From Escherichia coli (GTDB lineage: Bacteria; Pseudomonadota; Gammaproteobacteria; Enterobacterales; Enterobacteriaceae): DNA of 22,950 nucleotides. Position numbers and translations under genes: made by a program. Below, one piece after another: positions 7,354 to 7,741 of this stretch. The stretch is taken from the NCBI RefSeq assembly GCF_003334355.1, contig NZ_QOWP01000046.1, one strand, 5' to 3'. The notes under the pieces are model-generated. The model searched no databases, had not been told where the DNA came from, and was given only the letters and a program-made list of their open reading frames with translations. Within the stretch, counting starts at the first letter, position 1. Every line of letters begins with the position of its first letter.

Positions 7354-7552
7354 GAGGTTGTCCCGTATTCAGTGTCGCTGATTTGTATTGTCTGAAGTTG
7401 TTTTTACGTTAAGTTGATGCAGATCAATTAATACGATATCTGCGTCATAATTGATTATTTGACGTGGTTTGATGGCGTAGATGCACGTTGCGACATGCAG
7501 ATGATAATTATTATCATTTTTCGGGTCCTTTCCGGCGATCCGACAGGTTACG

Positions 7553-7564
7553 GGGCGGCGACCT
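7553..7564. other. cosN: λ-type 12-nt cohesive-end sequence GGGCGGCGACCT
   Basis: The junction …CGACAGGTTACG|GGGCGGCGACCTCGCGGGTTTTCGCTATTTATGAAAATTTTCC… matches the joined right and left ends of λ DNA as I recall them. Confidence 0.85.
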
Positions 7565-7602
7565 CGCGGGTTTTCGCTATTTATGAAAATTTTCCGGTTT
7601 AA

Positions 7603-7718
7603 GGCGTTTCCGTTCTTCTTCGTCGTAACTTAATGTTTTTATTTAAAATACCCCCTAAAAAGAAAGGAAACGACAGGTGCTGAAAACGAACTTTTGGGCC
7701 TCTGTCGTTTCCTTTCTC
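7603..7718. promoter_or_regulatory. cosB: terminase small-subunit binding sites (R3, R2, R1) with the intervening bend region
   Basis: R-element copies GGCGTTTCCGTTCTTCTT (7603-7620), AGAAAGGAAACGACAG (7661-7676) and its exact inverse CTGTCGTTTCCTTTCT (7702-7717), immediately upstream of nu1. Confidence 0.75.
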
Positions 7719-7741
7719 TGTTTTTGGCCGTGGAATGAACA

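Follow-up and report, generated by a model that had tools for sequence, protein, structure and literature searches.

A sequence-intact λ-type cos site beside the terminase genes of a truncated prophage assigned to the Escherichia coli Qin lineage

The interval 7354-7740 of the window (the whole 22,950-nt stretch of Escherichia coli DNA that was analysed) is the 387-nt intergenic region between ynfO, which is encoded leftward, and the gene for the terminase small subunit, Nu1 (nohA), which is encoded rightward (Table 1). For comparison with λ (NC_001416), the right end of the reference was joined to its left end and then aligned base by base with the window, the λ cos (cosQ-cosN-cosB) comprising 48473-48502 joined to 1-166. 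The heptamer listed as cosQ lies at what we take to be the position of cosQ within λ, about 24-30 bp left of the top-strand nick, and the IHF-like motif of the cosN-R3 spacer presumably corresponds to I2. Nu1, gnsB and the fragment of the Q antiterminator gene had no counterpart among the NCBIfam models, and ydfO only a spurious sub-threshold match; their names were taken from the PGAP annotation of near-identical records. A scan of the whole window against Rfam gave no match in 7354-7740, its sole match being a cspA thermoregulator (114 bits, above the gathering score) at 5297-5681, which takes in both the cspI coding sequence and the leader 5' of it.

Table 1. Features in and around the ynfO-Nu1 intergenic region, with positions in the window.
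Feature	Position	Strand	Correspondence and basis
ydfO (DUF1398)	6652-7077	-	homologue of λ orf lambdap78; PGAP ydfO
ynfO, 77-aa YlcI/YnfO-family protein	7120-7353	-	NCBIfam NF041551; PGAP ynfO in PSS-12 and K-12
Perfect FNR box, TTGAT-N4-ATCAA, TTGATGCAGATCAA	7414-7427		identical in λ
cosQ, GGGTCCT, packaging-termination subsite	7523-7529	+	identical to λ 48473-48479 in the alignment
cosN, 16 bp	7551-7566		identical to λ; 16-bp definition from Murialdo & Feiss 2022
Cohesive end, 12 nt, GGGCGGCGACCT	7553-7564		identical to λ; within the partly symmetric cosN
Predicted nicks	7552/7553 (top strand), 7564/7565 (bottom strand)		by λ equivalence; inside cosN
IHF-like motif, cosN-R3 spacer	7582-7594	+	identical to λ 30-42; two mismatches to WATCAANNNNTTR
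R3, AGGCGTTTCCGTTCTT, critical TerS (Nu1) binding site	7602-7617	+	identical to λ bp 50-65; definition from Murialdo & Feiss 2022
I1, core of the IHF site between R3 and R2	7626-7643	-	two overlapping IHF-consensus matches, as at λ 74-91
R2, AGAAAGGAAACGACAG, TerS binding site, inverted	7661-7676	-	identical to λ 109-124
R1, CTGTCGTTTCCTTTCT, TerS binding site	7702-7717	+	identical to λ 151-166
Nu1 (nohA), terminase small subunit	7742-8287	+	176/181 residues identical to λ Nu1 (97%)
Gene A, terminase large subunit, full length	8262-10187	+	637/641 residues identical to λ gpA (99%)

Across 7354-7740, the window differed from λ by 20 substitutions and one single-base deletion, none of which fell in cosQ, cosN, R3, the I1 core, R2 or R1. 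The sequence-only reading had proposed an intact λ-type cos composed of cosN and R3/R2/R1, and the alignment upheld it, with all defined subsites base-identical to λ. The first 72 bp of λ (cosN, the cosN-R3 spacer and R3) matched window 7553-7624 without any indel, and the cosN-to-R3 distance was the same as in λ, where this spacing is sensitive to 3-bp deletions (Murialdo & Feiss 2022). R1 was the exact reverse complement of R2. In cosB the elements came in the order R3-I1-R2-R1 and R2 faced the opposite way from R3 and R1, in agreement with the published definition (Murialdo & Feiss 2022). The definitions and roles of the cosQ, cosN and cosB subsites followed Feiss et al. (2015) and Murialdo & Feiss (2022), the former of which also mentions the conservation of I2. 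Eight differences from λ were found in the stretch from R3 to Nu1. The substitutions flanking I1 (λ 73, 102 and 105) were all outside its core, further single substitutions occurred at λ 176 and λ 48486, and left of cosQ the divergence was clustered at λ 48427-48448. The 12-nt cohesive-end sequence was present in a single copy in the window (0.003 expected by chance), and two phage records, 2G7b and ev243, terminate exactly at the equivalent of position 7552.

At bp 54 of R3 (window 7606), which sits just beyond the segment reported to contact TerS (bp 55-63), K-12 Qin (locus L004) and the phage PhiR42_1 (locus L005) have an A, and the window and λ a G.

The R2-R1 spacer (7677-7701, GTGCTGAAAACGAACTTTTGGGCCT) measured 25 nt against 26 nt in λ, as the sequence-only reading had estimated; one G was deleted at λ 138 and three bases were substituted, at λ 134, 139 and 145. 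IMG/VR was scanned for R2-N(18-34)-R1, which returned at least 120 loci. The spacer was 25 nt long in 120/120 of the matches listed, comprising 99 loci with the λ cohesive end and a remainder with variant cohesive ends, and the exact spacer of the window occurred at least eight times among these matches. K-12 Qin and PhiR42_1 also had a 25-nt spacer. As 25 nt was found in all the IMG/VR matches listed as well as in K-12 Qin and PhiR42_1, the 26-nt spacer appears to be a peculiarity of reference λ, an outlier, and not a defining trait of the family. The shorter spacer of the window thus gives no sign of damage, and it is the 26 nt of λ that look atypical among natural λ-type cos sites.

The alignment of 76 unique IMG/VR cos segments was near-invariant from cosQ to the start of Nu1, with the cosQ heptamer itself almost unchanged among the 76 sequences, whereas the part left of cosQ was variable and contained indels. 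As the conservation spans cosQ to Nu1, the functional cos unit would extend over about 7523-7717, some 195 bp, which fits the size of approximately 200 bp given in the literature (Feiss 2015).

Some of the natural IMG/VR cos sites had variant cohesive ends (GGGCGGAAGGCG, GGGCGTCAGGCG, GGGCGGCAGGCG and GGGCGGGAGCGT) together with λ-identical R2/R1 arms and a 25-nt spacer (L017, L021, L023, L031-L033, L039, L040, L043, L059, L060, L066, L079, L097, L098, L111, L113, L114, L117 and L122).

Of the interval, the leftmost 170 nt (7354-7520) very probably lie outside cos; they precede the divergently oriented ynfO and include an FNR-binding site. The FNR box was the sole match in the window (0.04 expected by chance). 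Measured from its centre, the ynfO ATG is 67.5 nt downstream and the cosN nick 132 nt to the right. The 24-mer around it is the FNR target identified upstream of both nohA and nohB in K-12 by ChIP-chip and EMSA, DLP12 (nohB) thus having the same FNR-bound 24-mer upstream of its noh gene; in the same study, reporter fusions responded only marginally to the loss of fnr (PMC1802558). Among the IMG/VR cos matches listed that extend 600 nt or more upstream, 77 of the 79 with the YnfO N-terminus and 0 of the 30 without it had the box. The box was therefore rejected as a part of cos and assigned to the ynfO block, an association that simple linkage within one mosaic block could equally produce. As the box is kept beside cos in λ, Qin, DLP12 and most ynfO-carrying relatives, and is bound by FNR in vivo in K-12, it might serve as an anaerobic phage switch in the gut, acting on ynfO/ylcI, on rightward transcription or on terminase access at cos. 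Such a role is nevertheless doubtful, the alternative being that the box is an inert binding site. Consensus scans of 6500-8300 returned two promoter-like sites (3.5 expected by shuffle) and three terminator-like sites (2.2 expected), none above the shuffle expectation; the R2-R1 hairpin was missed by the terminator scan because its 25-nt loop exceeds the loop limit of 3-8 nt.

The genes to the right of cos bear directly on its packaging specificity, since λ-like phages have cosN and cosQ in common, but not cosB or the specificity of TerS (Feiss 2015; Murialdo & Feiss 2022), so that a λ-like cohesive end might in principle accompany the specificity of phage 21, N15 or φ80. In the window, however, R3, R2 and R1 were all identical to λ, as were residues 1-47 of Nu1, which include the recognition helix (17-24, with E24) and the wing (31-39, with K35) described for TerS by Murialdo & Feiss (2022), and the probability of a specificity other than that of λ is next to nil. 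Given this identity in Nu1, the near-identity of gpA and the identical cos subsites, the cos site and the terminase seem to form a matched pair of λ specificity. A decayed cos, inactivated by the changes flanking I1 and by the shorter R2-R1 spacer, would be a way to read the eight differences between R3 and Nu1, but it is very unlikely: no change affects a defined subsite or the critical cosN-R3 spacing, 25 nt is the usual spacer length at natural sites, and the adjoining late genes are 97-99% identical to λ, with one gap per block throughout the remaining late region. Both the I1-flank and the spacer differences are polymorphic among natural cos sites and are thus probably neutral. With identity at every defined subsite and a λ-specific terminase encoded alongside, 7354-7740 very probably holds an intact λ-type cos with λ packaging specificity, in a prophage at the E. 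coli Qin locus.

Within the late region, the tape-measure gene H encodes 859 aa, compared with 853 aa in λ, and a short patch of this gene (19078-19281), flanked by blocks 97% and 99% identical to λ, gave no DNA match to the λ sequence.

Leftward of cos, the identity to λ (97%) began at window 7191, equivalent to λ 48141 and 362 bp left of the nick (blastn and alignment). This breakpoint falls within the ynfO ORF, at about codon 55. Just left of its own cos, λ carries an unannotated 64-aa YlcI/YnfO homologue (48303-48109, complement; L001, 4610-4804, minus strand), which has residues 1-49 in common with the 77-aa YnfO of the window and then diverges from it. A second block of λ similarity (84% over 6633-7136, equivalent to λ 47023-47527) covers ydfO and lambdap78; between the two blocks, 54 bp of the window stand in place of 613 bp of λ, including orf lambdap79. 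Left of 6633 no DNA match to λ was detected, both the lysis genes and the cargo (cold-shock genes and gnsB) being Qin-type, and none of λ S, R and Rz was matched at the DNA level by the lysis genes of the window. For λ, DE3, 2H10, Turner, mEp332 and others, the match to the window starts at the same base, 7191, whereas for PhiR42_1, PhiR70_1, PhiR49_1, Kati, Chlobot and ev099 it runs straight through the breakpoint. As many phages start at one base and a second group matches through it, the break in similarity appears to be an old and widely shared mosaic joint.

The sequence-only reading had placed the λ boundary about 200 bp upstream of cosN and had interpreted it as a recombination boundary with Qin/DLP12-like lysis and cargo genes, which would mean a private joint in this element between such genes and a λ structural module. 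It was right that λ similarity is interrupted left of cos, and the lysis genes are indeed Qin-type, but its distance has to be replaced by 362 bp, inside ynfO and not adjoining cos, and the two-donor joint does not hold, since the Qin prophage of K-12 itself carries cos and nohA. The λ alignment it had proposed as a check showed homology that reaches leftward into the cargo (84% at ydfO) and is not continuous. A private joint is quite unlikely given that the break is common to λ, DE3, 2H10, Turner and others, that the λ match goes on in ydfO, that K-12 Qin and PhiR42_1 are arranged like the window, and that the stretch 5200-8300, matched in 4846 of the 5426 complete E. coli genomes, is present in one piece over at least 80% of its length in 1100 of them. 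As K-12 Qin and PhiR42_1 are arranged alike, the architecture would instead be ancestral to the Qin lineage.

Positions 1-78 of the window correspond to the end of an IS1203 element (IS3 family), with the transposase start on the minus strand, and abut what is left of the Q antiterminator, an ORF (93-320) missing the N-terminal part. Three cargo genes separate this remnant from the lysis cassette; they encode a Blc-like lipocalin lipoprotein (476-1000, minus strand), a YbgA-family protein (1193-2152) and an AraC/YdeO-like regulator (2550-3272). In E. coli PSS-12, everything upstream of the IS (immunity, replication, integrase) is gone between ynfB and the IS; as the window starts at the IS1203 end, its own early-region loss is read from this 99.85%-identical genome. 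With Q cut by IS1203 and the early region gone in PSS-12, autonomous induction and packaging are unlikely.

By established λ biology, IHF would bend the DNA at I1 so that R3 and R2 could be bound by a Nu1 dimer, R1 providing a third binding site; Nu1 would then anchor gpA, which would nick the top strand between 7552 and 7553 and the bottom strand between 7564 and 7565, the stagger leaving 12-nt 5' cohesive ends. Packaging would proceed rightward through Nu1 and A and on through the tail genes, and cosQ, cosN and the I2 region would act in packaging termination when terminase arrives from the left. That the element should be packageable by λ-type terminase, as had been proposed, can reasonably be inferred for the cutting of cos. 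In this truncated prophage, cos would most likely be used only in trans, cut by the terminase of a superinfecting or co-resident phage of λ specificity. The region examined showed no second cos. If a terminase of λ specificity came from elsewhere, it would cut this cos, packaging would run rightward from there into the host chromosome, and the particle would not be viable, as the cos is a lone chromosomal one with neither excision and replication genes nor a downstream cos (Feiss 2015 for the fate of packaging begun at a lone prophage cos). The site may, in addition, be a hot spot of recombination for phages of λ specificity, as cos cutting stimulates recombination between λ and defective prophages (De Paepe 2014). 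Through a cos whose sequence is intact, an IS-truncated prophage is likely to offer superinfecting λ-like phages an entry point, both for their terminase and for recombination. The literature searched contained no report of λ terminase cutting the cos of Qin or nohA directly. A 1992 study reportedly found that λ terminase cuts the K-12 chromosome at prophage cos sites.

Such a λ-type cos is well known and ordinary, its prophage lineage being very common, and its discovery value is small, the λ cos being among the best-characterised DNA sites and the region being ubiquitous in E. coli. E. coli PSS-12 was 99.85% identical across the whole window; the prophage there adjoins ynfB/speG, a chromosomal position that is read from PSS-12, the window itself carrying no host flank. 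The Qin prophage of K-12 (NC_000913, about 1,635.8-1,640.1 kb) was 98.7% identical over window 4043-8270, with the same gene order (rrrQ, rzpQ, cspI, ynfQ, ynfR, ynfN, gnsB, ydfO, ynfO, cos, nohA), the same spacer length and, going by PSS-12, probably the same chromosomal neighbourhood. These two matches are the basis for assigning the locus to Qin, and the identity across cos and most of nohA indicates that Qin itself carries this cos.

Among known systems, the cos/nohB region of DLP12, considered here from the literature, is another K-12 remnant with a λ-like cos, Nu1 and A. It is 98% identical to λ over 3.35 kb spanning cos (De Paepe 2014), a stretch that includes the lysis genes R and Rz, whereas the lysis genes of the window are Qin-type. 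In K-12 Qin the segment from the end of nohA to stfQ is deleted (joint at 8270) and Q and the early region are kept, whereas the window keeps A through K/I and its Q is truncated by IS1203. The genes separating Q from the lysis genes are cspB and cspF in K-12 Qin, and the Blc-like, YbgA-family and AraC-family genes in the window. Escherichia phage PhiR42_1 (PV340562.1), 98.5% identical over window 4043-16800 and 99.0% over 7000-7800, possesses a full Q gene, a relBE/hokD/rem early-right region and λ-like head genes; it is Qin-like and was deposited as a complete phage genome with ECOR13 as listed host, its viability resting on the database record, and the literature search found no paper describing the PhiR phages. 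The window therefore appears to be a fuller copy of Qin, in which the structural genes have been retained as in PhiR42_1.
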